A DNA stretch of 64,000 nucleotides, taken from positions 8,199 through 72,198 of the IMG/VR virus record IMGVR_UViG_3300008110_010000. One strand, 5' to 3'. Source of the DNA: a virus. The translations under genes and the position numbers were made by a program. Positions 21,263 through 52,672 of this stretch are shown piece by piece. Each line of letters opens with the position of its first letter. Position 1 is the stretch's first letter. A model generated the notes under the pieces. The model was not told the origin of the DNA. It saw only the letters and a list, made by a program, of their open reading frames with translations, and did not search any database.

Positions 21263-21263
21263 G

Positions 21264-27449: not shown

Positions 27450-27651
27450 CTATTGTAGGGTCCTTTGGTTTTATCGATTTATGAAATTCCGTCAGATAGT
27501 ACTGAATCCTGTTGCTCCAATCATCCTTATCAATATCTTCTATCCAAGCTGAAATGTCATCGAGGGAATCTGAGATTCTTTCGAGTGCTTTTACTTTTCT
27601 AAGTTCCAATTCTAAAAATTGATCCTCGTTTGATTTTTTAGCTGTTGCCAT
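27442..27651 (-). CDS. small hypothetical protein
   Basis: 69-aa acidic ORF. Coding status uncertain. Confidence 0.2.
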   Translation of the reverse strand: MATAKKSNEDQFLELELRKVKALERISDSLDDISAWIEDIDKDDWSNRIQYYLTEFHKSIKPKDPTIDG

Positions 27652-27652
27652 A

Positions 27653-28501
27653 TTAGATTGATATTATTTTTTTAATTAAAGAGCTCCATTCTTTATAATC
27701 TTCAAAATAGACGCATCCATATTCAAACATAAAATCAGAATTACTGAGGTCTATCCTAGATTTATTTCTCTTTATAGCATCATACATCACTTTATATTCG
27801 TCAGAATATGAATAATCCTGATTAATATCTGCGACATTTTTGATCCTTTCTAAGCATGTTGAATCCCATTTAAAATGGTGGACCTGGACGGAATATTTTT
27901 CTACTGGTGCAATTAGTGGATGGCTCCATCCTTGCCACCTCCAGGTAGTCTGCCCATTTATTTTTGCATAATGCTGCCCAGAAGTTATTTCAATTCCTCC
28001 TTTAACCAAGCAGATTTTGTTAGGGCATGCGTTACTCATGGGGTATCTGAAAAATCCGGCTATGGGAAACTGGTCAAAGATTGGTACATCTTCAAGTATC
28101 TTACAGAACTCCCCGTTGTTTCCTATCCTGTCTAGAAATCCTCCCCTAATTAATTCCCACCCCTGACTTTCACAATCACTAACCATATAATTAGGTGACT
28201 CAGGATAAACGTGAAATTCGTCTATATCAGCAATCATGTACCAGTTGCTTCTTGATTTTTTTATTTGTTCATTATATAGATCAGTAACCCTGTTCCAATC
28301 AAAGATCCTATCATAAACAGTTTTAACTATTTTTACTTTTTCCTTACCTCTGATGGAACTTCTTACCTCTCTCTTTAAATCTGGATGCAGATCAGATTCA
28401 TAGACCACAAAATTTATTTCATCTACCATGTTATAATAATGATTGATGAAGTGTGGTATTAGAGGAACCCCATGACCTATTATAGATATTAATTTTATCA
28501 A
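27653..28501 (-). CDS. hypothetical protein
   Basis: 282-aa ORF with no motif recognised. Confidence 0.35.
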   Translation of the reverse strand: MIKLISIIGHGVPLIPHFINHYYNMVDEINFVVYESDLHPDLKREVRSSIRGKEKVKIVKTVYDRIFDWNRVTDLYNEQIKKSRSNWYMIADIDEFHVYPESPNYMVSDCESQGWELIRGGFLDRIGNNGEFCKILEDVPIFDQFPIAGFFRYPMSNACPNKICLVKGGIEITSGQHYAKINGQTTWRWQGWSHPLIAPVEKYSVQVHHFKWDSTCLERIKNVADINQDYSYSDEYKVMYDAIKRNKSRIDLSNSDFMFEYGCVYFEDYKEWSSLIKKIISI

Positions 28502-29226
28502 ATCTCTTTTCTTTTAAATAGGGTTATTCCTGATGACGAAGGTTTATCTTTTAATGATCCGTAATTAAATAGACTGAATTTTTCCCATTCAGAGTCGTCA
28601 AAATCTTTTACAAATTGGGATGGACCAGAGAAATCGTGGAAATCTTTTTTCTGATCTTCAGATACTATGAAGCTGGAAGAAAATTTAGGATCTGTGTCAT
28701 GTATTGCTATGATGCCCTGATCGTTCAAAATGTTTTTGTATAACTTAAAATCCTTGTCTACTCCTTCATATGAATGATCTCCATCTATAAAAAGAAAGTC
28801 TATTTTAATATCTTGTAAAACGAAAAAATCATAATATGCTCTTTCTGAAGTTTCTTTAACAAATCTTGGATGGAATGTTTTTCTGTAAAAACTTTCTTCA
28901 TCACACATATTAGATTGTCCCCCTACACCATTACACGGATCTACCACATAAGTTGCTCCGATATTCCCCCAATTATAATCGGGATTTCCCGAGAAAGTTC
29001 CTATTGAATGCAGATCTATTCGGGCTTGTGTTAGAATTCGCGGAATATATCCGCCTCCACTTCCTATGCAAACACAATTTTTAAATCTGAAAAATTGCAC
29101 TAGAGAATAGATCAGAAGTCCATCCCCCATATCCAGATCAGTCGCTCCGTGGGAGTATCTGAACGGGACAGGATTGTCCAAATCGTTGGTTATTCTTTGT
29201 TTTATGTAATCAGTATTCAGAATCAT
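28498..29226 (-). CDS. class I SAM-dependent methyltransferase (TylF/Methyltransf_24-like)
   Basis: CIGSGGGYIPR glycine-rich SAM loop and FIDGDHSYEGV (D-x-D-H-x-Y-E) typical of TylF/MycF-type O-methyltransferases. Confidence 0.45.
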   Translation of the reverse strand: MILNTDYIKQRITNDLDNPVPFRYSHGATDLDMGDGLLIYSLVQFFRFKNCVCIGSGGGYIPRILTQARIDLHSIGTFSGNPDYNWGNIGATYVVDPCNGVGGQSNMCDEESFYRKTFHPRFVKETSERAYYDFFVLQDIKIDFLFIDGDHSYEGVDKDFKLYKNILNDQGIIAIHDTDPKFSSSFIVSEDQKKDFHDFSGPSQFVKDFDDSEWEKFSLFNYGSLKDKPSSSGITLFKRKEI

Positions 29227-31555: not shown

Positions 31556-31556
31556 T

Positions 31557-33985: not shown

Positions 33986-34001
33986 CAAAAATTAATTTAA
34001 T

Positions 34002-35878: not shown

Positions 35879-36652
35879 ATGAGCAAAAATTTGGTAATTT
35901 ATTTAAATGTCTTTGATGACATATCAAAGACAGCACAAAGTGTAGAATCGATTAGAAGAGCATGTCATCGATGGGGTGCTAATTTTTACGAGGTGACAAA
36001 CGTTCAGTATCCAAATGCACCTTATCCCTTTCTCTGGGAAACCCTTGCAGCTTTTGAAGAGTTCAATCACTATGATAAAATTTTAAATTTGGATCATGAT
36101 ATCATCATAAATTCTAATGCTCCAAACATATTTGAGGAATTAACAGATGAATATGATTTTTGTGCTGTTAGAGACGGGAATCCGGGAGGAAGATTTCCTC
36201 ATAATGATGGATTTCTAAGAGATTCTATTATAAAAACAATTAGTCACGATCAAAATTGCTTTGATCTTTTTCATAGTGTTTTAAAGAATTTTAATTATGA
36301 AAAATACTGGCAAAATTATTTTAATTTAGGTGTCTATCTATTTAACCCCAAAAAATACAATCGATTGATTAAAGAAATCAAGCAATTGGCTTTTGATGAC
36401 AAAAGAGTTTATCAAATGCTTATGGGACAGGGATTTCCTTGGCACGCATTACAGAATTTTTTTAATGCTTACATATCTTCCTCCGATCTTAAAATTAAAT
36501 TAATTGACAATACTTGGAATTGGATTATGCCAGATATATCCGAGGAATATCACGATGATTTTTATCTGGGAAAAATGAAACCAAACATCTATCATTTCTG
36601 TGGAACCCCAACATCAAAGGAGGACCTTCCTTTTTATGACAGATGGAAATAA
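35879..36652 (+). CDS. putative glycosyltransferase (DxD-type)
   Basis: ILNLDHDIIINSN contains a DxD-like motif. The assignment is weak. Confidence 0.3.
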   Translation: MSKNLVIYLNVFDDISKTAQSVESIRRACHRWGANFYEVTNVQYPNAPYPFLWETLAAFEEFNHYDKILNLDHDIIINSNAPNIFEELTDEYDFCAVRDGNPGGRFPHNDGFLRDSIIKTISHDQNCFDLFHSVLKNFNYEKYWQNYFNLGVYLFNPKKYNRLIKEIKQLAFDDKRVYQMLMGQGFPWHALQNFFNAYISSSDLKIKLIDNTWNWIMPDISEEYHDDFYLGKMKPNIYHFCGTPTSKEDLPFYDRWK

Positions 36653-36667
36653 TTAAAATGAATCGAT

Positions 36668-37315
36668 ATGGCAAATGGAGTATACAAAATTACAGAAGAA
36701 TTTGAAAAATCACTCGAAAGCTATACAGGAGCTCCACATGTTGTAACTTTAGACAATCAGAGTAACGGACTTTTTCTTTCCCTATATTATGAAAATTACG
36801 TTAAAAAGAGCATAGAAAAAGGAAGTATAAAAATTCCAAGTCGAACTTATCCTTCAGTTCCTTGCGAGATTATTCATGCTGGCCTTAAAGTAGAGTTTGA
36901 GCATGTGAAAGGTAAGACGATTAAAGGTGCATACCAACTAAAAGGGAGCAAGGTTTGGGATTCTGCATTGTGTTTTACCTATAATATGTATAAGAAAAAT
37001 ACCCATATGTGCGTTTCTTTTACTGGACCATTTAAGCATTTTAAGTTGTCTAAAGGTGGAGCAATATTAACAGATGATCATGAAGCATATCTTTGGTTTA
37101 AAAGAGCTAGATATAGTGGCAGAAGAGAATGTTCTTATCATGACGATCACTTTGATATGCTGGGATGGAATTTTTATATGATGCCAGAATTAGCAGCAAG
37201 GGGTTTACTCATGATGGGACAATTTTATGATCCTACAACGGGAAAACCTAAAAACAATCCAGATCTGGAACTACCATATCCAGATTTATCAAAATTTGAT
37301 ATTTATAAAAAATGA
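36668..37315 (+). CDS. hypothetical protein
   Basis: 215-aa ORF with no motif recognised. Confidence 0.3.
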   Translation: MANGVYKITEEFEKSLESYTGAPHVVTLDNQSNGLFLSLYYENYVKKSIEKGSIKIPSRTYPSVPCEIIHAGLKVEFEHVKGKTIKGAYQLKGSKVWDSALCFTYNMYKKNTHMCVSFTGPFKHFKLSKGGAILTDDHEAYLWFKRARYSGRRECSYHDDHFDMLGWNFYMMPELAARGLLMMGQFYDPTTGKPKNNPDLELPYPDLSKFDIYKK

Positions 37316-39495
37316 GTAAAAAATTATCTATAATAATTCCCTCACTAAACAGGGAAAAATTACTTATAAGTTCTATCAATAGCATAGTAGAAATTTTTAA
37401 TTCATTCAACTTTCAAGATTATGATGTACATGCTATAGTAAATGGGTCAAACAAAAATACAACAGAAAAAATTAGAGAGAATATTTTTTTACATCATCAT
37501 GAAAAAAAATTGAATCCTGGAATAGCGAGAAATATAGGAATTGAAAAAAGCGACTCTGAGTGGATTTGGTTTATTGACGACGACGATGAAATAGTAGGTG
37601 AAAACATATCAAAAGTAATAGATTTTTTATACGACAAAAATGGTAATCATGGATTCGATTTAATAGCTCATTCTTTAAAAAATAAATACATTCCGGAAGA
37701 TAATAAGAGATCTCTATTGGAAAATGTTTGTTTTTTTAAAGAAAAACAGGAGGCATTCAATTACATTTTCAAAAGAGATTTAATAAAAAAGCATAATATA
37801 TTATTTTCCGACGGATTACACGAGGATATCAGATACGTAACAGAACTGATAATAAATTCCTCCATCATTAAAATATTTGATTTTTTCCTGTATAAAAAAA
37901 TTAACCGGGATGATTCGATAACTAAAAATCTCAATCCATCTAGAATAGATGGATATTTACTAGCAATCAGCGAGATTCAATCACTAGATAGCGATGAAAT
38001 TTCTTCGATGTCTAATGGAATAGTGACACAGTGTCTAGGAACTATCCTATATCTAATAAACAAATCCCAAAATAAGTTGGAGCTACTAGAATATCTGGAC
38101 AGCAAATTCACATTTTATCTAAGATCAAAAATAACCGAAACGTATAGTGAAAAAGATACTAATTTCAAATACGCTGTTTCTCTTTACATTAATAAGAAAG
38201 ACAATCTAGTATTTCTTGAAAGATTAAACGAATGCTTTTCTAGCTATCTCTCTTGTAGAGATCTAAAAAACTCAATATTTCTTGGTCCGAAAGAAATAAT
38301 AGGATGCTGTAAAAGATTCTTTTATAATGGTAAGATGAAGGGTGACATCGTTTTAATGTCGGAATCAATAGATGTTAATTTAGATTCTATACTTAAAAGA
38401 AAGGCTGAGGTTGAAGATGGGATAAATTCACAGACATATGAACCTTGTGAGGGGTGCCCTTATATAGAAAGATATAGTAGATTAGAAAATAAAAAAATAA
38501 ACTACATAAGCTTAGAAAATTTCACTTATTGCAACATGCGTTGTACTTATTGTTCTCCTAAATATTATGGGGGTAAAGAAGCAGTATACAACACTCATGA
38601 TATAATTAGTCAATTAATAGATGGTGAATATCTTGACGATAAAGTACACGTTGTTTGGGGAGGGGGAGAGCCAACATTACAAAGGGAATTTGGGGAAATA
38701 ACAGAGAAACTAATAAACATAGAAAATGTCTATAAGATAAGAGTTCTTACAAACAGTCTAAGATTTTCAAACGATCTTTATAACCTAGCATCGAATGATA
38801 AAATAAGGATAGTTACTAGTATAGATGCAGGAACTCAAGATGTATTTAAAAATATCAGGGGAAAAGGAGAAATTTTAACAGTTTTAGAGAACCTAAAAAA
38901 ATATACAGAGCAAACCAAGGATCCAGAGAATCTAACTTTAAAATACATTCTAACTGAACAAAACTATCATTCCAATCAGTTAGAACAATTTGTAAAAACT
39001 ATAAAAGAATTTGGATTTGAAAACAATTTTGTCCAAATAAGTTGTAATTTTTTATATGATCATCTGGGTGATGAGATAATATTTTCAATATACGAATTAG
39101 CAGCTAGACTATTAAATAATGGATTTAAGTTTGTTTATTTTGATGATTTAATCCGTGACAGATTAGCTATAAGTGAGGATATTGCGGATAAAGTAATCAA
39201 TTATTTGTCGGAAAAATACCTCTATCACGATGATATAATTTCTTATAAGAGTAATAAACGGGTAGTTCTTTGGGGAGATGGATACCAATCTAGATGGATA
39301 AAAAACAGCACAACCTTTGGAAAATCTAATAAAATAAGGGGAATCGTTTCCGATATAAATGGATTTAACAATTTGAATTTAAATGTGGGTTTTACAGTAT
39401 CCCCTGCCGCAATCCAACAATTACCAGACATATTTAAGGAAATTAAGAAGGAAAAAGATGTCTATAATAAATTGAAATTCCACATATTTCTATAA
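37312..39495 (+). CDS. fusion protein: N-terminal GT2-family glycosyltransferase + C-terminal radical SAM domain
   Basis: LSIIIPSLNREKLL and FIDDDDE (GT2 DxD) in the first ~250 aa. C-terminal half has FTYCNMRCTYC (C-x3-C-x2-C) and a VVWGGGEPTL glycine-rich SAM motif. Confidence 0.6.
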   Translation: MSKKLSIIIPSLNREKLLISSINSIVEIFNSFNFQDYDVHAIVNGSNKNTTEKIRENIFLHHHEKKLNPGIARNIGIEKSDSEWIWFIDDDDEIVGENISKVIDFLYDKNGNHGFDLIAHSLKNKYIPEDNKRSLLENVCFFKEKQEAFNYIFKRDLIKKHNILFSDGLHEDIRYVTELIINSSIIKIFDFFLYKKINRDDSITKNLNPSRIDGYLLAISEIQSLDSDEISSMSNGIVTQCLGTILYLINKSQNKLELLEYLDSKFTFYLRSKITETYSEKDTNFKYAVSLYINKKDNLVFLERLNECFSSYLSCRDLKNSIFLGPKEIIGCCKRFFYNGKMKGDIVLMSESIDVNLDSILKRKAEVEDGINSQTYEPCEGCPYIERYSRLENKKINYISLENFTYCNMRCTYCSPKYYGGKEAVYNTHDIISQLIDGEYLDDKVHVVWGGGEPTLQREFGEITEKLINIENVYKIRVLTNSLRFSNDLYNLASNDKIRIVTSIDAGTQDVFKNIRGKGEILTVLENLKKYTEQTKDPENLTLKYILTEQNYHSNQLEQFVKTIKEFGFENNFVQISCNFLYDHLGDEIIFSIYELAARLLNNGFKFVYFDDLIRDRLAISEDIADKVINYLSEKYLYHDDIISYKSNKRVVLWGDGYQSRWIKNSTTFGKSNKIRGIVSDINGFNNLNLNVGFTVSPAAIQQLPDIFKEIKKEKDVYNKLKFHIFL

Positions 39496-39521
39496 TAGAA
39501 TATTTTTAAAGAGAATTATAA

Positions 39522-40622
39522 ATGAAAAATAAAAAATTAAAAGTTTCTGTCATAGGAGGGGGTATAAATTCTGCAGTGGGATACGCACACTATTCTGCTA
39601 TTAAGCTTTCAAACAAGTTCGAGATAACCTGCGGAAATTTTAGCAGAAATTCAAAGACTAATAGGGAAAGCGCTGAAATATATGGAGTGAATAAAGTTTA
39701 TAGCGACTATAGGACTATGCTGTTGGAAGAAAAAAATAATATAGATGCAGTTGTAATATTAACCCCTACGGATCAGCATTATGATCAGTTAGACCTTGCA
39801 ATAAGCTTAGGAATCCCTATTGTTTGTGAGAAATGCTTGATCGCTAATAATTTGGAATTAGAAAAACTGAAGGAGAAACAATCTAATAATTTCATAGCAG
39901 TTGTTTTCAATTATCTCTGTTATCCTATGTTGAAGGAATTAAAAAGCATAATTGATTCGGGTGGAATTGGAAAAATTTTACAGATTCAAATCGAGATGCC
40001 GCAAGAAGGATTTCTTAGGCACATGAACGGATTACCACTTAAACCACAAAAATGGAGATTAGTGGATGGAAGAGTTCCCACCCTTTCTCTTGATCTAGCA
40101 ACGCACACATATTCTATAGTAAGATTTTTAACATCACAAAATCCTTTAGAGGTTATTGCAGTCGAAAGTAGTTTTGGAAATTTTCCTGGAATAGTTGATG
40201 ATATAAATTGCATAATTAAATACACGAATGATATAATTTGTAATATGTGGTATAGTAAAACCGCATTAGGGAATAGAAATGGATTAAGGGTTAGAATATT
40301 TGGGTCTGATGGAAGTGCAGAATGGTACCAATTAGAACCAGAAGTAATTCACATGTCAGATAAAAGTGGAAAGATATCTTTGCTAGATAGGGGATCTGAA
40401 GGATTATTAACAGCTAATGAATTCAAATATAATAGATTCAAAGTTGGGCATCCTGTAGGATTTATTGAATCCCTCGCTAATTTTTATGAGGACGTCTATG
40501 ATGATTTTAAAAAAAGTCATGATGATCGCGTTACATATGGTCTAGAGCAATCAGAGGAGTGTATTAAACTGCTAGAGGCAATATCTAAGTCATCCGAAGA
40601 AAAATCTTGGCAATCCTTATGA
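39522..40622 (+). CDS. Gfo/Idh/MocA-family NAD(P)-dependent oxidoreductase
   Basis: N-terminal Rossmann KVSVIGGGINSAVGYAH with Gfo/Idh/MocA-like architecture. Confidence 0.5.
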   Translation: MKNKKLKVSVIGGGINSAVGYAHYSAIKLSNKFEITCGNFSRNSKTNRESAEIYGVNKVYSDYRTMLLEEKNNIDAVVILTPTDQHYDQLDLAISLGIPIVCEKCLIANNLELEKLKEKQSNNFIAVVFNYLCYPMLKELKSIIDSGGIGKILQIQIEMPQEGFLRHMNGLPLKPQKWRLVDGRVPTLSLDLATHTYSIVRFLTSQNPLEVIAVESSFGNFPGIVDDINCIIKYTNDIICNMWYSKTALGNRNGLRVRIFGSDGSAEWYQLEPEVIHMSDKSGKISLLDRGSEGLLTANEFKYNRFKVGHPVGFIESLANFYEDVYDDFKKSHDDRVTYGLEQSEECIKLLEAISKSSEEKSWQSL

Positions 40623-41782
40623 AAAAAATTTTACTGCTCGATACTAACGTTTCATCGTTTCCTATTTATAATTTTTTGGTTAACGAGGGATATGAAGTTT
40701 ATGTTGCTGGATCAAAAGAAAATGATTGTCTGGCAAAATGCTCTACTAATTATATTTTTTTAGACTATTCCAGAATAGAAGAATTAAACAAAATAATTGA
40801 AGATTATAAATTTGATTATATTGTTCCAGGGTGTAACGACATGTCTTATGCTTGTGTTACTAAAATAAATAAATCTAGAAAATTTCCTGGATTAGATCCG
40901 ACTGAAATTTGCGAAACTATTAATAATAAATCGATGTTTAGAGATTTTGCAATTTCGAATGGATTAAATGTTCCCAAGGTTTATTCTTTAAAAGATGCTT
41001 ATTGTGTTAATGTTCCACTAATAATAAAACCAGTTGATGCTTATAGCGGGAGAGGGATTTCTATAGTAAACGAACCAAACAAGATGTTACTAGATTTGGC
41101 TGTTGAAAATGCTATAAAATTTTCAAAAGACAAAAAATATGTAATAGAAGAATACAAAACAGGTCAGCTATACAGTCATTCTGCATTTATAGAAAACAAA
41201 AAGATAGTAAAAGATTTTATAGTTGTAGAAAATTGTACTGCCAATCCTTTTACTGTGGATTCTAGTTATGTTGTACATGATGACTTTCCTGTTAATTTGC
41301 TAGAATCAATAAGGAAAGATATAGAGATAATAGCAAAAATTTTAAAATTAGAGGATGGTCTTATTCATACGCAATTTATAAGGTCTGGAGATTCTTTTTA
41401 TATAATAGAGGTTACCAGAAGATGTCCGGGGGATTTGTATAGCTTGCTGATTGAAAAATCTACAAATTTTAAATATTCACAAAATTATGTTAGACCTTTT
41501 ATTGGGAAAAAAATAATACAATCCACATCAGAAGAAATTAAAAAATACATTTTTAGACACACTATATCTAGCGATGCAGACCTTTTTTCGATTGGAATTG
41601 AATTTAAAAACGAATTGGATATAGATTTATACATTTCTCTTTCTGTTACTGGGGATGAAATGAAAAAATCACCATTCAGTAGATTTGGTCTGGTCTTCAT
41701 TAAATGTAACGATCAGAAGGATCTTGAGAATAAATACGGCCTAGCTTTGAGGAGAGAACTATATTATTATAAGAGTATATAG
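40607..41782 (+). CDS. ATP-grasp family ligase
   Basis: PLIIKPVDAYSGRGISIV is an ATP-grasp phosphate-binding loop. N-terminal pre-ATP-grasp domain. Confidence 0.5.
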   Translation: MAILMKKILLLDTNVSSFPIYNFLVNEGYEVYVAGSKENDCLAKCSTNYIFLDYSRIEELNKIIEDYKFDYIVPGCNDMSYACVTKINKSRKFPGLDPTEICETINNKSMFRDFAISNGLNVPKVYSLKDAYCVNVPLIIKPVDAYSGRGISIVNEPNKMLLDLAVENAIKFSKDKKYVIEEYKTGQLYSHSAFIENKKIVKDFIVVENCTANPFTVDSSYVVHDDFPVNLLESIRKDIEIIAKILKLEDGLIHTQFIRSGDSFYIIEVTRRCPGDLYSLLIEKSTNFKYSQNYVRPFIGKKIIQSTSEEIKKYIFRHTISSDADLFSIGIEFKNELDIDLYISLSVTGDEMKKSPFSRFGLVFIKCNDQKDLENKYGLALRRELYYYKSI

Positions 41783-41798
41783 AGATATTTTTATAGAA

Positions 41799-42122
41799 AT
41801 GATTACAGTAACTGAAAAAGCAGCACAAAGAATTAAATACCTAATAGAAGAAGCAGAAGATTCTAAGTTTTATCTAAGAGTATCTGTTAAAGGGGGAGGA
41901 TGTAGCGGACTTTCATATGATTTATCATTTGATGACGAGATGAACGAAAAAGACACTCTTTATGAAGATAAAGCAGTTAAAATATTAGTGGATAATAAAT
42001 CCATTCTTTATCTGTTTGGAACTGAACTAGACTTCTCTGACGGACTTAACGGTAAGGGATTTCAGTTCGTAAATCCTAATGCCTCCCGCACATGTGGATG
42101 TGGAGAAAGCTTTGCTGTGTAG
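41799..42122 (+). CDS. A-type iron-sulfur cluster carrier (IscA/HesB/ErpA family)
   Basis: 107 aa with a GGGCSG block and C-terminal RTCGCGESF: the three conserved Cys of HesB/IscA. Confidence 0.75.
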   Translation: MITVTEKAAQRIKYLIEEAEDSKFYLRVSVKGGGCSGLSYDLSFDDEMNEKDTLYEDKAVKILVDNKSILYLFGTELDFSDGLNGKGFQFVNPNASRTCGCGESFAV

Positions 42123-42138
42123 CTTGATATATAGCTAC

Positions 42139-42831
42139 ATGATAAAGGGGTTTTCTGAATACATTAACGAAGCTTATAGCAATCCTAAAAATTATACGGA
42201 TTTAAAATACGGAAATCCACAAAAGTGGCAAAAAGAAGCCATGGACAGAGGATCTAACCTTTTAAAATCTGTCAAAGAATCAAATCTTTGGGAAAAATGG
42301 ACTTCTAGTTTACCTCCCAATCAAGATTCAGAGGAGGTAAAATCCGATTTACAAAATTTAATTCTCATGGGAAATTCTTTAACCGAGGAGGAAAAAGAGT
42401 TTGTAAAGGATTCAGAAAATGATATGCTAGGAATCTTTGAGAAATTTTTAAAGTTAAATGGGGTTGATTCTATTAAGAAAGAAGATTTGGAATCGGTAAC
42501 AGATGAATTGGATCCGATCACTTTTATTTTAAAATATCAGTTTAACTATCCTAGACCACTTCAACTGGCTCTTGTCCACGACATACCCCTTTATCCAGAG
42601 CAGCCAACTAACGCTTGCAGTCCCGCTTATCCTTCCGGACACTCAATAGATGCTTTTGTGATTGCTGGATTGATTGCTAAAAAATACCCTCAACTTGCCG
42701 ATGATGTTTCTAAGCTTTCTGAAAGAGTTTCTATGACTAGAAACCTGGGAGGAATACATTTCACGTTTGATTCATCCTTTGGTAAAGAAATAGCAGAAGA
42801 TATACTTTCTTTGGATCTTTTATCCCTTTAG
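42139..42831 (+). CDS. PAP2-superfamily phosphatase (acid phosphatase/haloperoxidase-like)
   Basis: NYPRP, YPSGHS and SRVSMTRNLGGIHFTFD match the K-x6-RP / PSGH / SR-x5-H-x3-D PAP2 motifs. Start moved to the internal ATG at 42139 to avoid overlap with the IscA-like gene. Confidence 0.55.
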   Translation: MIKGFSEYINEAYSNPKNYTDLKYGNPQKWQKEAMDRGSNLLKSVKESNLWEKWTSSLPPNQDSEEVKSDLQNLILMGNSLTEEEKEFVKDSENDMLGIFEKFLKLNGVDSIKKEDLESVTDELDPITFILKYQFNYPRPLQLALVHDIPLYPEQPTNACSPAYPSGHSIDAFVIAGLIAKKYPQLADDVSKLSERVSMTRNLGGIHFTFDSSFGKEIAEDILSLDLLSL

Positions 42832-42948: not shown

Positions 42949-45900
42949 ATGGCAAATTATAGAATTTTAGGACAAGAAACTGTTAACAATTCGGTAAGTC
43001 CGGGACCTACCCTTGTAACACTTTATACGGTTCCTCAAAATGCTTCCATTCTAATCAATGCAATAACCGGATATAATGAGGGATTTAATAGTGGATATCT
43101 TACCGTTGCAGTAAAAAGGAACGGGGACGAGGACTATTCTCCAGATCAAATTGTTATAAATACTCCCTTAGCACCCGGTGCTTCAATACAAATTTCTCCT
43201 CAATTTTCTCCTGTTGGTTTAACTGCCGGCGACGTAATACTTTTAGTTGGTAATTATTCTCCTGCCCCTACAACAGTAGCGGTAACCTTATTCGGTGAAG
43301 ACGGGGCTTCTAGCGGTGGATCCGGCAATGCAGGAACATCCGGAACTTCAGGAAACAGTGGGGGCTCAAGTACTTCAGGAAGTAATGGTACTAGCGGGAC
43401 TTCGGGAACTAATGGATCTACAGGAACTGGTGGTACTAGTGGTACCTCTGGAATGAACGGATCTATCGGAACTAATGGTACGAGTGGAACCTCAGGTGAA
43501 ACCTTCGGAACTAGTGGAACGTCAGGGGCAGCTGGTGCTCCTGGAGCAGCGGGATCTTCTGGAACATCTGGGGTTTCCGGAGCATCTGGTTCTTCTGGAA
43601 CCTCTGGGGTTTCCGGAGCATCCGGTTCTTCCGGAACATCGGGAAATTCAGGTTCTTCTGGAACATCTGGGATTTCCGGGGCATCTGGTTCTTCCGGAAC
43701 ATCAGGAAATTCGGGATCCTCTGGTACATCAGGAAATTCGGGAACCTCTGGTACTTCGGGAGAATCTGGTTCTGCTGGTACATCCGGATCATCTGGAACA
43801 TCAGGAAACTCCGGGTCATCCGGTACATCAGGAAACTCCGGGTCCTCCGGTACATCAGGAAATTCGGGAACCTCTGGTACTTCTGGGGAATCTGGCTCTT
43901 CTGGAACATCAGGATTCTCTGGGTCCTCCGGAACATCAGGAAACTCCGGGTCATCCGGTACATCAGGATCCTCTGGAGAACCCGGTTCTGCCGGAACATC
44001 GGGATCCTCAGGTACATCTGGTACATCAGGAAACTCCGGGTCATCCGGTACATCAGGGTCATCCGGTACATCAGGGTCCTCTGGTACATCTGGTGCTGAT
44101 GGTACATCCGGTTCTTCCGGAACCTCGGGAAACCCTGGATCATCAGGGACCTCTGGAACATCAGGAAACTCTGGATCATCGGGGACCTCCGGATCCGCTG
44201 GAACTTCTGGTTTAAGCGGAATATCTGCAGGACAGATTTATTATTTTAACCAATCTCAGTCTTCTGACATTTCTCCATATAAAGTCCTTAGTGTTTACCC
44301 ATCAGGAGCTGCTGAACAAACAGTTCCTATGGTATTAACGGGCGGGCAATTGAATGTTCTGGTAAGTCAATTCCTGACCCCCGAATTGGGATTTGCTGTA
44401 ATTCCACCAGGCACTCAGAGATTTCATCTGCATTTTTTAAAACAACAGTTTAATGATGACATAGATGGCTATGTTACCATAGAACTTGCAAATTCGTCAG
44501 GTGTAGGATATGGCACTATTATTCAATCAAACAAAGCTTTAATTGGATGGGTGAGTGTTTCTCAATCTTATGAGCTGTTGGTTGATATTGTTTTACCTTC
44601 AGTATACATAAACACCACAGACAGAATGATTGTCAAGGTTTACGTTGACAATAATGAAGCAACCGTCAGAAATTTAACTTGGTACACAGAGGGGGCTCAA
44701 AACTATTCATATGTAATCACATCGGTTGGAGCAATTGTAGCAAGCTCTGGAACGTCAGGGAGTTCTGGAACTAGTGGATCAAGCGGAACTTCGGGATCCG
44801 GGGGTTCATCAGGAACTAGCGGATCTAGTGGATCGGAGGGAACTTCAGGTAGCTCTGGTACTTCCGGCAGTTCTGGAACCTCTGGAGAAGATGGAACTTC
44901 AGGTAGCTCTGGTACTTCCGGCAGTTCTGGAACCTCTGGAGAAGATGGAACTTCGGGATCTGGGGGTTCATCAGGAACTAGCGGATCTAGTGGATCGGAG
45001 GGAACTTCAGGTAGCTCTGGTACTTCGGGAACCTCTGGAGAAGATGGAACTTCAGGTAGCTCTGGTACTTCGGGAACCTCTGGAGAAGATGGAACTAGTG
45101 GATCTTCAGGTACATCAGGAACCTCGGGGGTGTGCGAGTGTCCACACAGCTACACTATCACGGCTCCAACGGATATCACGTGTTACTCTTTAACAAATGA
45201 CGGAGATCCCGACAACGTAAATAGTACAAACTATCTCGATTGTAACGGGAATCCTGCGGTCATTTACAATAAAATTTTTCTCACACCAGCTACTTATTTC
45301 TGTGCTCAGACCGGATCTGTTACAACTGATTCGGGGCTCACTGTAATATCAGTACCTGATGATCCTGGATCTTGCGACGGATGTTGCGATGGATATGCTT
45401 ATTCTTATACCGACGAAACAGATACTATCATAAGTGGAATCATATATGACGGAGAATCTCTAACTTTCTGTGCGATCCCAGGATCTGTAGTTTGGTCCCA
45501 TACAATAGTAGACAATGGGCATTGTGTAGGAAGTTCAGGTACTTCCGGCAGTTCTGGTTCGAATGGTACGTCAGGTAGCTCTGGTACTTCCGGCAGTTCT
45601 GGATCTTCTGGGACATCAGGAACTGATGGTTCCTCCGGTAGTACAGGTACTTCTGGTTCTTCCGGCAGTTCTGGATCTTCTGGGACATCAGGAACTGATG
45701 GTTCCTCCGGTAGTACAGGTACTTCTGGATCCTCAGGGTCATCTGGAACTTCCGGAACTGATGGATCTTCAGGTACATCAGGTAACTCTGGTTCTTCTGG
45801 AACCTCAGGATCAGCAGGTACATCAGGAAATGAGGGTCCCCCTGGATCTTCGGGAACGTCAGGAATTGATGGAACCAACGGATCGACAGGTTCTTCTGGA

Positions 45901-47580
45901 ACCTCAGGAAACTCTGGTTCTTCAGGTACTTCAGGTACTTCAGGTAGTTCTGGTTCAACTGGTACTTCAGGTAGTTCTGGTTCTTCTGGAACCTCTGGTT
46001 CTTCTGGTTCAACTGGTACTTCAGGTACTTCAGGTACTTCCGGTAGTTCTGGTTCAACTGGTACTTCAGGTAGTTCTGGTTCTTCTGGAACCTCAGGAAA
46101 CTCTGGATCTTCTGGAACCTCTGGAGCATCAGGATCTTCTGGAACCTCAGGAAACTCTGGTTCTTCTGGAACCTCTGGAGCATCAGGTAGTTCTGGTTCT
46201 TCTGGAACCTCTGGAGCATCAGGATCTTCTGGAACCTCAGGAAACTCTGGATCTTCTGGAACCTCAGGAAACTCTGGATCTTCTGGAACCTCTGGAGCAT
46301 CAGGATCTTCTGGAACCTCAGGAAACTCTGGATCTTCTGGAACCTCTGGAGCATCAGGATCTTCTGGAACCTCTGGAGCATCGGGAGCTAATGGATCTTC
46401 TGGAACCTCTGGAGCATCAGGATCTTCTGGAACCTCTGGAGCATCAGGAGCTAATGGATCTTCTGGAACCTCTGGAGCATCAGGAGCTAATGGATCTTCT
46501 GGAACCTCAGGAAACTCTGGTTCTTCTGGAACCTCTGGAGCATCAGGAGCTAATGGATCTTCTGGAACCTCAGGATCTTCTGGAACCCGAGGTTCCTCAG
46601 GAACTTCAGGAGCTTCCGGTGGAAACGGAACATCCGGAACTTCAGGAGCTTCCGGGGGAAGCGGAACATCCGGAACTTCGGGAGCTTCTAGTTCAGCAAT
46701 ATCTAGTAATAACATCGACAACTATGTTGTTACCATGACTGGAAACAATTCCACGCCTTTCCAAGGGGAGCCTAACTTAACATTCGATAATACGAGACTT
46801 TTTGTAACTGGGAAAGTAAGGGTTTATCAAAATCCATTAAGCATAAGTTCAGGAAGTCTTTCTTGGCCTTTAAGATCTGGAGCAAATGCAACAGTTACTT
46901 TAAATCAAAATGTAACTACGTTTACACTTAGCGAATTTGAAGCTGGAGATACTGGGGTATTAATAGTAAAACAAGATGCTACTGGAGGTAGAACAATGGT
47001 ACTTCCCTCTAGTTCACAAGTAGTTGGAGGAGGATCTTATACCCCAACATCCGCTGCAAACTCACAAGACGTTCTTGGAGTTTACTACGACGGAACAACA
47101 TATTTCTGGACCATTGGGCTCGCTAGTGTTACAGGTAACTTACTTACAATAAACAATAATGCAGATCACAGAATATTGACTGCAACTGGTAGTGCTACTT
47201 CGATAGACGGAGAAACAGGATTGACTTATAACAGCAGTACATTAGCAGTAACTGGAGCAATCACAGCAACAGGAGATATCACTGCTTATTCATCTTCGGA
47301 TGAAAGATTAAAGGATAATATTTCGGTTATTCAGGATGCTTTGGAAAAGGTCTCTAGCATAAGAGGAGTGGAATTTGATTGGAACGACAAGGCTCATGAA
47401 GTTAATAGAGGTCACGATCTTGGAGTAATTGCTCAAGAGCTGATTAAAGTTCTTCCTGATGCAGTTAAAGAAAGAGAAGATGGATATTATGGGGTAAGAT
47501 ATGACAGAATTATACCTCTTCTCATAGAGGCTATAAAAGACTTAAGAAAAGAAATAGAAGAACTTAAAAGAGAAAAATAA
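42949..47580 (+). CDS. collagen-like (G-S/T-S/T repeat) fibre protein with Cys-rich insert and C-terminal intramolecular-chaperone (peptidase S74) domain; putative tail fibre
   Basis: Three long Gly-X-Y blocks (GTSGSSGTSGNSG...) where X and Y are almost only Ser/Thr/Asn/Ala. A Cys-rich non-repeat segment (CECPHSYTITAP...CDGCCDGYAY...) interrupts them. The C-terminal SSSDERLKDNISVIQDALEKV...GVEFDW matches the S-D-x-R-L-K-x-N-I autoproteolytic chaperone motif of phage tail fibres/endosialidases. Confidence 0.7.
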   Translation: MANYRILGQETVNNSVSPGPTLVTLYTVPQNASILINAITGYNEGFNSGYLTVAVKRNGDEDYSPDQIVINTPLAPGASIQISPQFSPVGLTAGDVILLVGNYSPAPTTVAVTLFGEDGASSGGSGNAGTSGTSGNSGGSSTSGSNGTSGTSGTNGSTGTGGTSGTSGMNGSIGTNGTSGTSGETFGTSGTSGAAGAPGAAGSSGTSGVSGASGSSGTSGVSGASGSSGTSGNSGSSGTSGISGASGSSGTSGNSGSSGTSGNSGTSGTSGESGSAGTSGSSGTSGNSGSSGTSGNSGSSGTSGNSGTSGTSGESGSSGTSGFSGSSGTSGNSGSSGTSGSSGEPGSAGTSGSSGTSGTSGNSGSSGTSGSSGTSGSSGTSGADGTSGSSGTSGNPGSSGTSGTSGNSGSSGTSGSAGTSGLSGISAGQIYYFNQSQSSDISPYKVLSVYPSGAAEQTVPMVLTGGQLNVLVSQFLTPELGFAVIPPGTQRFHLHFLKQQFNDDIDGYVTIELANSSGVGYGTIIQSNKALIGWVSVSQSYELLVDIVLPSVYINTTDRMIVKVYVDNNEATVRNLTWYTEGAQNYSYVITSVGAIVASSGTSGSSGTSGSSGTSGSGGSSGTSGSSGSEGTSGSSGTSGSSGTSGEDGTSGSSGTSGSSGTSGEDGTSGSGGSSGTSGSSGSEGTSGSSGTSGTSGEDGTSGSSGTSGTSGEDGTSGSSGTSGTSGVCECPHSYTITAPTDITCYSLTNDGDPDNVNSTNYLDCNGNPAVIYNKIFLTPATYFCAQTGSVTTDSGLTVISVPDDPGSCDGCCDGYAYSYTDETDTIISGIIYDGESLTFCAIPGSVVWSHTIVDNGHCVGSSGTSGSSGSNGTSGSSGTSGSSGSSGTSGTDGSSGSTGTSGSSGSSGSSGTSGTDGSSGSTGTSGSSGSSGTSGTDGSSGTSGNSGSSGTSGSAGTSGNEGPPGSSGTSGIDGTNGSTGSSGTSGNSGSSGTSGTSGSSGSTGTSGSSGSSGTSGSSGSTGTSGTSGTSGSSGSTGTSGSSGSSGTSGNSGSSGTSGASGSSGTSGNSGSSGTSGASGSSGSSGTSGASGSSGTSGNSGSSGTSGNSGSSGTSGASGSSGTSGNSGSSGTSGASGSSGTSGASGANGSSGTSGASGSSGTSGASGANGSSGTSGASGANGSSGTSGNSGSSGTSGASGANGSSGTSGSSGTRGSSGTSGASGGNGTSGTSGASGGSGTSGTSGASSSAISSNNIDNYVVTMTGNNSTPFQGEPNLTFDNTRLFVTGKVRVYQNPLSISSGSLSWPLRSGANATVTLNQNVTTFTLSEFEAGDTGVLIVKQDATGGRTMVLPSSSQVVGGGSYTPTSAANSQDVLGVYYDGTTYFWTIGLASVTGNLLTINNNADHRILTATGSATSIDGETGLTYNSSTLAVTGAITATGDITAYSSSDERLKDNISVIQDALEKVSSIRGVEFDWNDKAHEVNRGHDLGVIAQELIKVLPDAVKEREDGYYGVRYDRIIPLLIEAIKDLRKEIEELKREK
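43309..46690 (+). repeat. coding tandem repeats (9-nt GGN-based collagen-like units with higher-order ~54-66 nt repeats)
   Basis: Blocks at ~43309-44210, 44764-45124 and 45541-46690. They create many spurious overlapping ORFs on both strands. Confidence 0.8.
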
Positions 47581-47933
47581 TGACACATTTAGAGCCAGTA
47601 ATAGTTCAAAATGAAATACCTCCATACTTTGATATTTACTTTGAAAACACCCTTCCAGAAGGTGAGGATGAATTTTCTTTTTCTTTTGGACCCCAACCGG
47701 GATACGATACTTGGGAGATAGAATTCGCTGAAGGATCAACTGATTGGGAGGTTAAACCTGATGGCTGGGTACAGATTGAAATAGGATGGGGTCAAGAAAC
47801 ATATTTAACCCCTTTCCATCATTTGAACCAAATAATACATTTAGAATTTAATAGAATCCATGTGATGAAACCCGGAACTCTAAAAACATTAAAATTAAGA
47901 GGTAGAAGAATAGCATTGAAAGATAAATCATGA
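47580..47933 (+). CDS. hypothetical protein
   Basis: 117-aa ORF whose start overlaps the fibre gene stop (TAATG). Confidence 0.3.
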   Translation: MTHLEPVIVQNEIPPYFDIYFENTLPEGEDEFSFSFGPQPGYDTWEIEFAEGSTDWEVKPDGWVQIEIGWGQETYLTPFHHLNQIIHLEFNRIHVMKPGTLKTLKLRGRRIALKDKS

Positions 47934-50726: not shown

Positions 50727-51665
50727 TTGTTATGTATGAAAACTATTTGGGTTTTAGAGGACATAAAAAAAGATGGAGAATTTTTCCTTCATGAGGTTGA
50801 GCTCGTTTGTCTGATTGCATCAGTTTCGAATTGGAAGGTGTTATATCCGGAATGTGAAACTGTAATTTATGTGTGTCCCTCAGTTTACAATTATCTAGAA
50901 AAAATTGGAATTTTAAATTTATGGGACAGTGTAGAAACTAATCCTTTATCAAAAAGTGATAATATTAATAGAAGAGCTTTCTGGACTGCTTCCAAGCTGA
51001 AGTGTATGAAAAACATAGAAGCTCCTTTCATAATGATGGATTGTGATTTATATTTCAAAAGAAAAACATTTGAAATCAAGGACTTATCCAAATACGATAT
51101 AATAGTTAATCAGATCGAAGAAGGAGTAAAGGTTTATCCCAGCATCAAAGACAAAATACTAAATCAGATAGTAAATGAATATCCGATTAAATTCGGATGG
51201 AAAAACACACATTCAACCAACGTTTCATTCCTTTATATAAATAATGAAGATTTTAGAATGGAATATGCTAACATCTCATTGGAATGGATGGAAATCCTTT
51301 CGCAAAGATTTTGGGACGATCCTGATTTGAACGGAAAATATATGGTTTTTTGTGAACAGAAGATTTTAAAAGAGCTTGGGGATTTAAGAGTTCAAAAGAT
51401 AGCAGCTCTTTCTCCACAATTCTTTTTCGGAGAAGAAAATACAATTCTGAATATCCCTGATGAATATGGAACTTTTTCAATGAATGACAGTCTAGATTAT
51501 TCTCATCTCCATGCGAATAAAAGATTTGTTCTCAAGGACAGGAGTCTTTTTTTAGATATAAGAAGCGATATTATAGAATCCATGGTAAATCTAAATAGTT
51601 TTACTATGAAACTTTTGCATCAGATATTACTTAAAAATAAAGAAATAATTGGCCCAGTGGCGTAA
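50727..51665 (+). CDS. hypothetical protein
   Basis: 312-aa ORF that ends 17 nt into the downstream tRNA-Leu (starts 51649). Confidence 0.35.
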   Translation: MLCMKTIWVLEDIKKDGEFFLHEVELVCLIASVSNWKVLYPECETVIYVCPSVYNYLEKIGILNLWDSVETNPLSKSDNINRRAFWTASKLKCMKNIEAPFIMMDCDLYFKRKTFEIKDLSKYDIIVNQIEEGVKVYPSIKDKILNQIVNEYPIKFGWKNTHSTNVSFLYINNEDFRMEYANISLEWMEILSQRFWDDPDLNGKYMVFCEQKILKELGDLRVQKIAALSPQFFFGEENTILNIPDEYGTFSMNDSLDYSHLHANKRFVLKDRSLFLDIRSDIIESMVNLNSFTMKLLHQILLKNKEIIGPVA

Positions 51666-51732
51666 TTGGTAGCCGCACTAGACTTAGGATCTAGTGTCGA
51701 AAGACGTGGGGGTTCGAGTCCCTCCTGGGTCA
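51649..51732 (+). tRNA. tRNA-Leu(TAG)
   Basis: Acceptor GGCCCAG/CTGGGTC, anticodon stem CTAGA/TCTAG with loop CTTAGGA, long variable arm, T-loop TTCGAGT. Confidence 0.75.
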
Positions 51733-51740
51733 CACAGAAA

Positions 51741-52358
51741 ATGATAGTTCACTTTATTTGGGTTGGGGATCGAAAAATTCCTCAGCATTTTTTGTCTAAT
51801 CTGGAAAAGTTTAAATCCTTAAATCCCTCTGAAGAAATTCTGGAGTGGGACGATGAGCATTTAATCCCATTAATTAAATCTTACGGCAGGGAAGAACTTT
51901 ATTTTTCTTCTGGTATTTTCCACAAGTTACAAATTGCTAGATACACTGTTTTAGATTACTATGGAGGAATTTACATAGACTATGATCTGAATTGGAAAGT
52001 CTCAGTCAAAGAAGGACTAGGATTAAGAACAGAAAGGGATCTGTGTTTAATTAAAAGAAGATCCCTATATTTCTACAAGAAAGAAGAATCAATCTTAAAG
52101 ATTGATCTATTAGACGATTATGTAATTTTTGCTAAGCCTGGAATTACAAACGGGTTTATAGATTATAGCCTGAACAGGTTCCTAGATAAATCTAGAATCA
52201 AAGAATGCCAAACTGAACCTTTCAGCGTGTATTCTTTGACTGAATGGGTTCACGATTCACAATTCGATTTTGATTGTTTCGATCATACTGAGATATATGA
52301 CAGCGGGGAATGTAAGCTAGCATATCATGATAACAAAAAAACCTGGGAGGGAAAATAA
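51741..52358 (+). CDS. glycosyltransferase with sugar-binding DXD region (Gly_transf_sug-like)
   Basis: MIVHFIWVGDRKIP and GGIYIDYDL match the HFIW(I/V)G ... GGIY-x-D-x-D signature. Start trimmed from 51666 to the ATG at 51741 because the upstream 25 codons are the tRNA-Leu. Confidence 0.5.
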   Translation: MIVHFIWVGDRKIPQHFLSNLEKFKSLNPSEEILEWDDEHLIPLIKSYGREELYFSSGIFHKLQIARYTVLDYYGGIYIDYDLNWKVSVKEGLGLRTERDLCLIKRRSLYFYKKEESILKIDLLDDYVIFAKPGITNGFIDYSLNRFLDKSRIKECQTEPFSVYSLTEWVHDSQFDFDCFDHTEIYDSGECKLAYHDNKKTWEGK

Positions 52359-52360
52359 GA

Positions 52361-52672
52361 ATGCCGACTAAAAAAATAAAAGAGATAGTTAAAGAGTATA
52401 AGGATGCAACCGCCTTTGAGATTTTTGAGGGAGTTAGAGATAATTTTCTCTTTGGATTTATTGGAGCAACTTTGGTAGTTTTCATTTCGACCCGGTTAGA
52501 TATAGGAGTTTTATTGGGTTATATTACATATTACTATTTTATGGGAAGAATTGTAAATCGTCCTAAATACGTGACCTCCTTAGGAAAATTAATAGTTTTC
52601 CCCATTCCCTCTGCACTTGGGGCTTTTGCAGGATACAAGTTAGCTTATTATCTACATCTGATAATTCAATAA
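52361..52672 (+). CDS. small membrane protein
   Basis: 103 aa with two hydrophobic helices. Confidence 0.3.
   Translation: MPTKKIKEIVKEYKDATAFEIFEGVRDNFLFGFIGATLVVFISTRLDIGVLLGYITYYYFMGRIVNRPKYVTSLGKLIVFPIPSALGAFAGYKLAYYLHLIIQ

Follow-up and report, generated by a model that had tools for sequence, protein, structure and literature searches.

A probable tail fibre of an uncultured phage with nearly proline-free collagen-like tracts and a C-terminal Peptidase_S74 domain

The DNA analysed here, referred to below as the window, is a stretch of 64,000 nucleotides from the IMG/VR virus record IMGVR_UViG_3300008110_010000, and it carries on its plus strand a gene for a collagen-like protein of 1543 amino acids (aa). 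The product of this gene probably forms a homotrimer and serves an uncultured large tailed phage as a virion fibre, most likely as the one which recognises the host (tail fibre). We regard the protein as a real virion fibre of a known kind, similar proteins being carried by many environmental phages. It is of the long, bead-on-string type of Pro-free, Ser/Thr-rich collagen-like fibres and has two unnamed inserts; the gene class as such is already known. For the large group of uncultured-phage fibres containing this protein no experimental study was found.

The fibre gene and its Gly-X-Y tracts

The collagen-like open reading frame (ORF) that had been proposed in the original prediction, made from the letters of the window, was confirmed. 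Translation and repeat mapping gave 272 Gly-X-Y triplets in three tracts, the longest run being 129 triplets, and the Pfam Collagen profile (PF01391) matched the protein with E=1e-101. The occurrence of Gly at every third residue through runs of 80-129 triplets cannot be due to chance. Tract 1 carries two small breaks, namely a Gly-to-Ser change at aa 141-143 and a one-residue insertion at 186. The X positions are occupied mainly by Thr, Ser, Ala and Asn and the Y positions overwhelmingly by Ser, and Ser and Thr together make up 440 of the 544 X/Y positions of the tracts (81%). The repeats had been described as free of Pro; this was nearly exact (0.9% of the X/Y positions), but five Pro residues are present, at aa 198, 345, 396, 964 and 965.

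A 1552-aa allele was found in another metagenome, and it differs from the fibre by in-frame insertions and deletions of triplets and by one A-to-N substitution, and by almost nothing else. This variation in almost wholly whole triplets was counted in favour of a collagen-like fibre. The G+C content of the fibre region is 42-47% as compared with about 32%, while the G+C of third codon positions (GC3) is 0.24 in the fibre gene and 0.29 in the other genes, and the codon usage is typical of the genome. Horizontal acquisition as the source of the high G+C was ruled out by the GC3 and by the synonymous codon use, both matching the genome; the high value is due to the Gly, Ser and Thr codons and not to a foreign origin.

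The repeat itself accounts for the other long ORFs of the region, which lie in alternative frames or on the opposite strand (43475-44215, 45405-46721 and others). A TATAAAT sequence 65 nucleotides (nt) 5' of the start (42878) was considered as a T4-type late promoter and was rejected as uninformative, 56 copies being present in the window vs about 40 expected. The scans for sigma-70 promoters and terminators gave chance level only.

The C-terminal Peptidase_S74 domain

An autocleaving chaperone had been predicted at the C-terminus, and the comparison with Peptidase_S74 that had been named as a check for it gave a clear match. With the whole fibre the PF13884 profile scored 58.7 bits (E=7e-16, cutoff 22), profile positions 1-58 aligning with aa 1450-1507, and on the C-terminal fragment alone the score was 61.8 bits (E=7.4e-17). 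The domain forms the last 94 aa of the fibre and follows the tail-fibre stalk motifs described below. The residues S1450-D-E-R-L-K1455, encoded at 47296-47313, align with SDERLK of 8jov and with SDRRIK of S16 gp37 (6f45); weaker sequence matches of this end in the PDB were MYRF and phi29 gp12. Ser1450 and Lys1455 are presumably the catalytic dyad, an assignment which we take over from the work on endosialidase and MYRF. Judged by profile, motif and position, the fibre is a member of the class of phage fibres that end in S74, and it would be expected to cleave itself at S1450.

The distal region and the globular inserts

The region preceding the S74 domain contains two copies of a tail-fibre stalk motif (N..D.R.LT.TG....E.NLTFD...L.VTG) around a beta-sandwich. 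The latter resembles the C-terminus of the protein P0007, and on truncated copies of the fibre it bears a precomputed match to PF26209 (Phage_phiTE_241_C). The distal region together with the S74 domain matched PHROG families of tail fibres, long-tail-fibre distal subunits and baseplate wedges, the best with E=4.7e-46. With the C-terminal 296 aa 40 PHROG families were matched, and among the best 25 of these 21 belonged to the tail category and 4 were of unknown function. In tblastn, aa 1278-1528 matched annotated tail fibres of cyanophages.

The beta-sandwich, the N-terminal domain and the insert at aa 427-600 were absent from the original prediction. Searches with the N-terminal domain (aa 1-122) in Pfam, PHROG, the PDB and a word-indexed homologue search were all empty, even at E<=1. 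The insert at aa 427-600, which we call the M domain, has homologues in 36 clusters with 45-65% identity, and it was present in at least 191 IMG/VR loci. All complete copies start directly after ...G-I-S-(A/S)-G and are followed by further G-X-Y triplets. An AlphaFold2 (AF2) model based on the homologue alignment gave an all-beta fold with a predicted local distance difference test score (pLDDT) of 90.2; the structures were predicted as monomers only, and the G-X-Y residues flanking the domains had low confidence. A Foldseek search against viral models found the M domain in collagen-repeat and S74-bearing proteins of 'uncultured Caudovirales phage'. No Pfam or PHROG family covers the M domain, and neither this nor the Cys-rich domain gave a tblastn match among cultured or deposited phages. 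Judging from the model, this node may bind glycans laterally and with low affinity.

The Cys-rich insert breaking the repeats, as noticed originally, is indeed there: ten Cys lie between tracts 2 and 3 (729, 731, 745, 765, 785, 809, 812, 813, 841 and 859), with C-E-C right after the final triplet of tract 2 and H-C-V right before tract 3. An exhaustive HMMER search with the insert gave 12 hits, 9 of which matched a six-Cys module of about 75 aa with the pattern CxCYxYTNDGDP...YLDC...YFCA..GSV...CGGC. The segment of aa ~814-859 looks like a shorter, degenerate second copy of the module. Eight of the nine proteins carrying the module are multidomain proteins rich in Pro/Thr linkers, while the ninth (P0042) is without such linkers; in the eight homologues that were scanned no Pfam family was found for the module. 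Since the gene of one homologue (P0040) lies 3 kb from a prohead protease gene, that homologue is also a phage structural protein. The family of the six-Cys module (P0037-P0047; L013 553-2841) is unnamed, and one member carries a Laminin_G_3 domain. The M domain and the six-Cys module are two unnamed families; domain databases could take them up, and phage fibre genes could then be recognised by them.

Table 1. Features of the fibre gene and its surroundings (positions in the window). Tract lengths in nm are estimates that assume a triple helix with a rise of 0.286 nm per residue.
Feature	Position	Strand	Description
Fibre gene	42949..47580	+	1543 aa plus stop, ATG start; sole uninterrupted frame with conserved domains
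N-terminal globular domain	42949..43314	+	aa 1-122; presumed virion-attachment end, by position only
Collagen-like tract 1	43315..44226	+	aa 123-426, 100 triplets, ~87 nm if triple-helical
Insert 1, M domain	44227..44748	+	aa 427-600; jelly roll like that of a carbohydrate-binding module (CBM) or galactose-binding domain
Collagen-like tract 2	44749..45135	+	aa 601-729, 43 triplets, ~37 nm if triple-helical, last residue Cys729
Insert 2, Cys-rich	45136..45528	+	aa 730-860; six-Cys module at aa ~743-813
Collagen-like tract 3	45529..46689	+	aa 861-1247, 129 triplets, ~111 nm if triple-helical
Distal non-collagen region	46690..47295	+	aa 1248-1449; stalk motif, beta-sandwich (~aa 1295-1395), stalk motif
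Peptidase_S74 intramolecular chaperone	47296..47577	+	aa 1450-1543; predicted cleavage before S1450
Two downstream ORFs	47580-47933 and 47930-48634	+	117 aa and 234 aa; each start overlaps the stop before it
Upstream co-directional genes	35879..42831	+	GT8, DegT-like, GT2 plus radical-SAM fusion, GFO/IDH/MocA oxidoreductase, ATP-grasp, IscA-like, soluble PAP2
Downstream genes	50727..52358	+	DUF6734 protein, DXD-type glycosyltransferase (Gly_transf_sug)
Candidate modification genes	24604..29226	-	two GT7 (beta4GalT-like) plus Laminin_G_3 fusions, GT2-like, methyltransferase; link to the fibre by synteny only

Relatives of the fibre

In 24 of the 36 homologue clusters Pro was below 2% and Ser/Thr made up 60-98% of the X/Y positions. 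Thus the nearly Pro-free Ser/Thr composition and the size, to which attention had been drawn at the outset, are real but not unusual, fibres of up to 3989 aa being found. On the sequences compared, uncultured phages commonly have collagen-like fibres of the Pro-free Ser/Thr type, and the protein is ordinary for its environment. The N-terminal domain and the Cys insert were found in none of the IMG/VR M-domain loci examined.

Among the M-domain fibres, that of L084 (2148-14114) has 3989 aa and 1026 triplets, that of L027 (5802-12092) has 2097 aa and 561 triplets with 0% Pro and 90% Ser/Thr, and that of L031 (788-9322; 2845 aa, 513 triplets) has a Cys-rich, Gly-rich C-terminal repeat region. L010, a relative of this phage, also has a gene for a Ser/Thr-collagen fibre in the corresponding place behind PAP2; its product carries the M domain, has a different N-terminus and another insert in first place, and ends in a domain other than S74. 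These swapped modules at the same site mean that the locus is a modular, fast-changing fibre gene. In the region 10001-21734 of L007, from a 171-kb phage contig, a collagen, M and S74 fibre gene with repeats of the Pro/Gln type lies beside the baseplate gene gp25. Behind it come three genes for 2-oxoglutarate (2OG)-Fe(II) oxygenases (one of them prolyl-hydroxylase-like), one for a sulfotransferase, two of the GT2 family and another collagen gene. This gene set may be a different collagen-modification cassette.

Assembly of the fibre and the question of the triple helix

From proximal to distal, the fibre would consist of an orphan N-terminal attachment domain, three Pro-free Ser/Thr-rich rods with two globular nodes between them (the CBM-like jelly roll and the Cys-rich double module), a stalk/beta-sandwich/stalk region as the probable site of host contact, and the C-terminal S74 chaperone. 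If the tracts are triple-helical, the whole fibre would be about 235 nm or more in length, with two beads.

For the folding and cleavage we propose a sequence of events modelled on endosialidase, T5 pb1 and S16 gp37. The three S74 domains would associate and set the register of the chains, after which they would template the preceding trimeric stalk. The collagen tracts could then zip up from this C-terminal nucleation, the globular nodes serving as points of re-registration, and the chaperone would cut itself off before Ser1450, with Lys1455 as the base, to give a fibre of 1449 aa and a free fragment of 94 aa. After lysis Cys729 and Cys731 (at the end of tract 2) and Cys859 (before tract 3) might form interchain disulfides which staple the helices; metal binding would be an alternative role of these junction Cys. 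These Cys, paired at both junctions of collagen and insert, are placed like the cystine knots that link the chains of collagen III and of the FACIT collagens. By means of a trimeriser at the C-terminus and internal nodes, 820 residues of weak, imino-acid-free helix would be folded in three shorter steps.

The tracts might instead be flexible, mucin-like Ser/Thr/Gly spacers without a triple helix. The Pro content of only 0.9% speaks for such spacers, and so does the low AF2 confidence of the flanking G-X-Y residues, though the latter is expected of any monomer. However, a strict Gly periodicity, which extends over 272 triplets here and 1026 in a homologue, would be needless in a disordered linker. 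The flanks of the M domain are Pro-free Ser/Thr tracts in some homologues and Pro/Gln collagen in others (24.5% Pro in P0014, 14.8% in P0026), and the Gly periodicity is preserved always. Since the same domain is also flanked by canonical Pro-containing collagen and the periodicity is kept, the Ser/Thr tracts can be taken as structural equivalents of triple-helical ones. The C-terminal domain of the known S74 proteins works as a trimer. Because of the periodicity over hundreds of triplets and this trimer-type C-terminal domain we prefer a triple helix to a disordered linker, and consider the spacers very unlikely.

We call the fibre collagen-like for the following reason. Its sequence matches the collagen profile, but with 5 Pro in 544 X/Y positions it falls short of the imino acid content of characterised collagens, and the triple helix is left as a possibility. 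In bacterial collagens Pro occupies about 19-31% of the X positions (PMC8968730). The class as a whole poses the question whether a triple helix can be formed from Ser/Thr alone with near-zero proline; this bears on the rules of collagen stability and is relevant to the design of recombinant collagen materials.

Position of the fibre on the virion

A tail location of the fibre is likely, as suggested by the strongest matches of the distal region, which are to long-tail-fibre distal subunit and tail-fibre families, and by the homologue P0010, a protein with collagen, M and S74 parts whose gene adjoins the baseplate gene gp25. A virion fibre of another kind, i.e. an appendage of the head, the neck or of whisker type with which the phage would adhere reversibly to particles, to mucus or to the surface of cells, has to be weighed against this. 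S74 chaperones also terminate neck appendages (phi29 gp12), and the CBM-like node suggests lateral glycan binding. In IMG/VR the neighbours of the M-domain fibres include genes for capsid, portal and protease and for further collagen or S74 proteins, some of the fibres lying just downstream of the major capsid gene Gp23, and the Cys-module homologue P0040 is the one encoded near a prohead protease gene. The long tail fibre of T4 measures roughly 145 nm, which the estimated rod of 235 nm or more would exceed. Against these points stand the distal matches and the neighbourhood of P0010, and we consider a non-tail appendage unlikely.

Several observations weigh against a trimeric, collagen-like tail fibre itself. 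No collagen as poor in imino acids (0.9%) is known from experimental study (PMC8968730), and in the host-guest peptide scales Ser and Thr have only a moderate triple-helix propensity. The N-terminal domain is without any homologue that would tie the fibre to an attachment site on the virion. No tail, baseplate or capsid gene was found in the 64-kb window, and the gene is not placed in a tail/baseplate module; it stands among genes of sugar metabolism and auxiliary genes, tRNAs follow downstream, and the replication genes lie outside the window. It is because no tail genes are nearby that we hold the tail location as likely only.

The sugar-enzyme island and a possible glycosylation of the fibre

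The fibre gene lies inside an island of sugar enzymes that spans 45 kb, and the presence of glycosyltransferases (GT) and other sugar enzymes around it, as originally stated, was confirmed by the families of the neighbouring genes (Table 1). On the minus strand there are also five radical-SAM proteins and a mannose-phosphate isomerase/nucleotidyltransferase. The fibre had been proposed as the most plausible target of this island, and this is supported in part. What supports the proposal is the synteny of the array in relatives and the soluble nature of the enzymes; what does not is the missing general link to GT genes and the literature, which favours the host O-chain.

Decoration of the fibre by the neighbouring sugar enzymes appears plausible from the gene content. 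The rods would be O-glycosylated by the soluble GT8, GT2, GT7-lectin and DXD-type GT enzymes of the phage, to which the sugar-nucleotide enzymes of the island would deliver the substrates, and the glycans would stabilise or hydrate the imino-acid-free helix or shield it from proteases. This is compatible with the tail fibre proposed above, and we rate its chance as somewhat short of even. About level with it stands the alternative that the island remodels the host envelope (O-antigen, capsule or lipopolysaccharide) against superinfection, or provides modified sugars for some other use; the fibre would then be unglycosylated, and would merely share a hypervariable 'host recognition cluster' with the island.

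The genes of related phages bear on both. A collagen ORF was found within 10 kb of a GT7-LamG gene in 14 of 61 distinct loci, and 12 of these 14 had more than 90% Ser/Thr in the X/Y positions and Pro of at most 0.9%. In ten such Ser/Thr-collagen loci, compared gene by gene, the collagen gene is the first of a tightly packed array of genes that run in one direction. Six of the GT7-linked collagen proteins (L100, L103, L108, L113, L114 and L118) end in an S74 domain homologous to that of the window's fibre, and these six genes are co-directional with, and 2-6 kb upstream of, an orthologous MT24-GT2-GT7-GT7-radical-SAM array; the collagen protein of L100 has an M-like domain as well. In L100, L119 and L133 the methyltransferase-GT2-GT7-GT7-radical-SAM array showed, by blastp against the window, 44-62% identity to the minus-strand cluster of the latter. 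The ORFs between fibre and array in the relatives code only for sugar enzymes or lectin-domain proteins (Anp1-like GT, NAD-dependent epimerase/dehydratase and lectin-domain proteins). The tight co-directional arrangement suggests co-expression of the array with a late structural gene, which speaks for a modified fibre and against an envelope function. The conservation of this neighbourhood is real, but it is shared by descent and hence is not independent evidence; in the window the GT7 array is 14 kb off and on the opposite strand.

A general co-occurrence of GT genes with M-domain fibres was not found in 16 distinct, unrelated IMG/VR loci: of the 143 ORFs within 6 kb of the fibres, GT-family hits fell on 2-4 proteins. 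These fibres are placed in head/tail modules, and the same ORFs included 12 further collagen proteins and 5 S74 proteins besides capsid, portal and protease genes. This usual lack of adjacent GT genes is in line with a role of the island in the envelope, and so is the modularity of the locus, with the L010 fibre differing at the same site in N-terminus, insert and C-terminus. Comparable islands of pelagimyophages and cyanomyophages have been attributed to modification of the host O-chain (PMC7029224).

In a hydropathy scan the enzymes of the island were without a predicted membrane span, and no ORF of the 64-kb window was as rich in hydrophobic spans as a flippase, polymerase or ligase should be; a membrane-embedded protein of the Gtr, Wzx, Wzy or WaaL type, which would argue for the envelope, was not seen in the window. 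The result fits protein glycosylation in the cytoplasm, but also those parts of envelope-glycan synthesis that take place there. The scan flagged six hydrophobic segments in the window, three of them in 31163-32468 (+), where a 130-aa ORF with two predicted spans is followed by an SPFH/Band 7 protein. One further segment is in a small unassigned ORF (52361-52672), and two, which are probably buried and no membrane spans, are in the IMPDH-family and GFO/IDH/MocA enzymes.

Among solved structures the GT7 domain is closest to beta4GalT7 and beta4GalT1 of animals (E about 1e-32 to 1e-30). The substrates of these two enzymes are glycans linked to proteins, and this was counted in favour of a glycosylated fibre. 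However, no homologue of a proven protein-O-glycosyltransferase was identified among the GTs of the island, and for the GT8 and the DXD-type GT no nearest solved structure was obtained. The collagen of Mimivirus and the virions of mycobacteriophages are glycosylated and serve as precedents. Glycosylation of collagen-like filaments is known also from BclA (PMC8968730).

A further-reaching form of the proposal would be that a lineage of large aquatic phages makes a viral 'glyco-collagen', its very long, imino-acid-free fibres folding only after dense O-glycosylation by a phage pathway at work in the cytoplasm of the host, which we find doubtful. The pathway would comprise the GT7-lectin fusions of animal, beta4GalT-like type, the GT8 and GT2 enzymes, sugar modification by radical-SAM enzymes and the supply of galactofuranose. 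The conserved collagen-methyltransferase-GT2-GT7-GT7-radical-SAM array would then be a biosynthetic operon, and the fibre a phage counterpart of the glycosylated BclA or of the cuticle collagen of Riftia. The conserved array of fibre, methyltransferase, GT2, two GT7-lectin and radical-SAM genes offers a concrete, testable operon for protein glycosylation encoded by a phage, and with it the question arises whether it is the virion, and not the host, on which the sugar islands of aquatic phages act.

Some features of the island enzymes are recorded here in their own right. The two GT7 (Glyco_transf_7N/7C) plus Laminin_G_3 fusions are paralogous (24604-26046 and 26043-27449, both minus strand), and the GT7-LamG protein has 246 relatives in IMG/VR, in phage contigs of up to 334 kb. 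In the radical-SAM run at 16305-23296 (-), the proteins at 16305-17474 and 17456-18793 have the SPASM domain N-terminal to the core, the reverse of the usual order; the orthologues of the run come after the GT7 pair in L100, L119 and L133. A 727-aa protein (37312-39495, +) is a fusion of a GT2 domain (aa 6-110) with a radical-SAM domain (aa 405-540). The IscA/HesB-type Fe-S assembly protein of the island (41799-42122, +) might plausibly serve the six radical-SAM enzymes. UDP-galactopyranose mutase is encoded at 57934-59022 (+; Pfam GLF, E=3e-76), thus the phage would supply galactofuranose.

Genome context

The window contains phage-type features, i.e. 21 tRNAs, a tmRNA, a CHAP gene and 2OG-Fe(II) oxygenases; a precomputed Pfam match to glucosaminidase was found on the same gene of related contigs. 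The genome was assigned to a bacteriophage because of the tmRNA, the 21 tRNAs, the lysis-type CHAP/glucosaminidase genes and the matches to cyanophage tail fibres. A giant eukaryotic virus was ruled out by the tmRNA, by the CHAP and glucosaminidase genes and by the homologies to phage tail fibres. Megablast of 5 kb against INPHARED gave tRNA matches only, and the phage is not among the deposited ones. Exactly matching proteins were present in more than 40 metagenome blocks; one of these was a block of 0.2-1 Mb, and the contigs were as long as 153 kb. The phage is plentiful in the metagenomes ERZ272479xx, JGI 3300027816, 3300042691 and 3300008262. The replication genes for DnaB, a RecA-like protein and RNase H lie to the right of the window; for an extension to the left no exact match was on record.

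The tmRNA (33604-33988, +) matched Rfam RF00023 with 79.5 bits, and ARAGORN predicted a tag of 24 residues. The tRNA genes form three clusters between 35650 and 57899, one of which begins 250 nt past the fibre operon. A tRNA set tailored to the fibre was considered and rejected: the Ser, Thr and Gly codons of the fibre are covered, but the 21 tRNAs cover most amino acids.

The 117-aa and 234-aa ORFs that follow the fibre gene are present in all related contigs, and together with its 3' end they are kept in 6 metagenome contigs. Their sole family match was phrog_24956, of unknown function, and they are possible accessory proteins of the fibre. The PAP2-family gene (42079-42831, +) had no membrane span in the hydropathy scan, and by eye its protein keeps the three phosphatase/haloperoxidase motifs KxxxxxxRP, PSGH and (S/T)RxxxxxHxxxD. 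It lies directly upstream of the collagen fibre gene both here and in L010 (7246-7938), and in L008 (13405-14136) a PAP2 gene is near another M-domain collagen gene. A 624-aa protein (5408-7282, -) matches Hint, intein-splicing and pretoxin-HINT domains with its C-terminal ~150 aa.

Comparison with known systems

Scl1/Scl2 and other bacterial collagens form triple helices free of hydroxyproline, which depend on polar residues and hydration and on a trimerisation domain next to them (PMC8968730). The NCBIfam Scl/Lcl models match the fibre below their cutoffs. The Scl-type collagens keep appreciable Pro and many charged residues, whereas the window's fibre has neither.

BclA has sugar genes beside its structural gene and a globular, trimerising C-terminal domain. 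Its filaments, from the exosporium of Bacillus and Clostridioides, consist of O-glycosylated G-X-Y repeats rich in hydroxy amino acids (PMC8968730). They differ from the phage fibre in having mostly Gly-Pro-Thr (GPT) repeats and a C1q/TNF-like C-terminus with no S74, and in belonging to a spore and not to a virus. Glycosylation of the phage fibre, for its part, is a proposal.

The collagen-like prophage proteins of E. coli O157:H7 are said to be trimeric and located in tail fibres, and reportedly they are short, contain Pro and have no inserts like those of the present fibre. That these prophages encode collagen-like sequences (PMC3368898) is what they have in common with the window's fibre.

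In pelagimyophages and cyanomyophages, which are low-GC aquatic myophages, a hypervariable host recognition cluster contains tail fibres, collagen-repeat proteins, many GTs, the commonest being GT8, and radical-SAM cassettes (PMC7029224). That cluster sits between VrlC and gp14 in the structural module, while the island of the window is without structural flanks, and the phage of the window has in addition the 21 tRNAs, the tmRNA and the GT7-lectin fusions.

Close to the fibre are also the collagen-repeat proteins of uncultured Caudovirales (e.g. UniProt A0A6J5SWS4, A0A6J5N627, A0A6J5NH96; IMG/VR loci L015-L093), known from automatic annotation alone. They have the same M domain within G-X-Y tracts, and over this domain the identity to the window's fibre is 49-62% in the BFVD entries and 51-67% in the IMG/VR loci. 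Most are Pro-free and Ser/Thr-rich and some end in S74, but none has the N-terminal domain or the Cys insert of the present fibre.

With the S74 fibres and spikes (K1F endosialidase, T5 pb1, S16 gp37 6f45, phi29 gp12 3gud and 8jov) the fibre shares the C-terminal S74 domain with Ser-x4-Lys, a core match of ~60 aa lying inside a 94-aa terminal fragment after a trimeric stalk. The known S74 proteins, however, fold beta-helical or beta-prism shafts, whereas here ~200 aa separate the S74 domain from the collagen-type repeats before it, which take up more than 800 aa.

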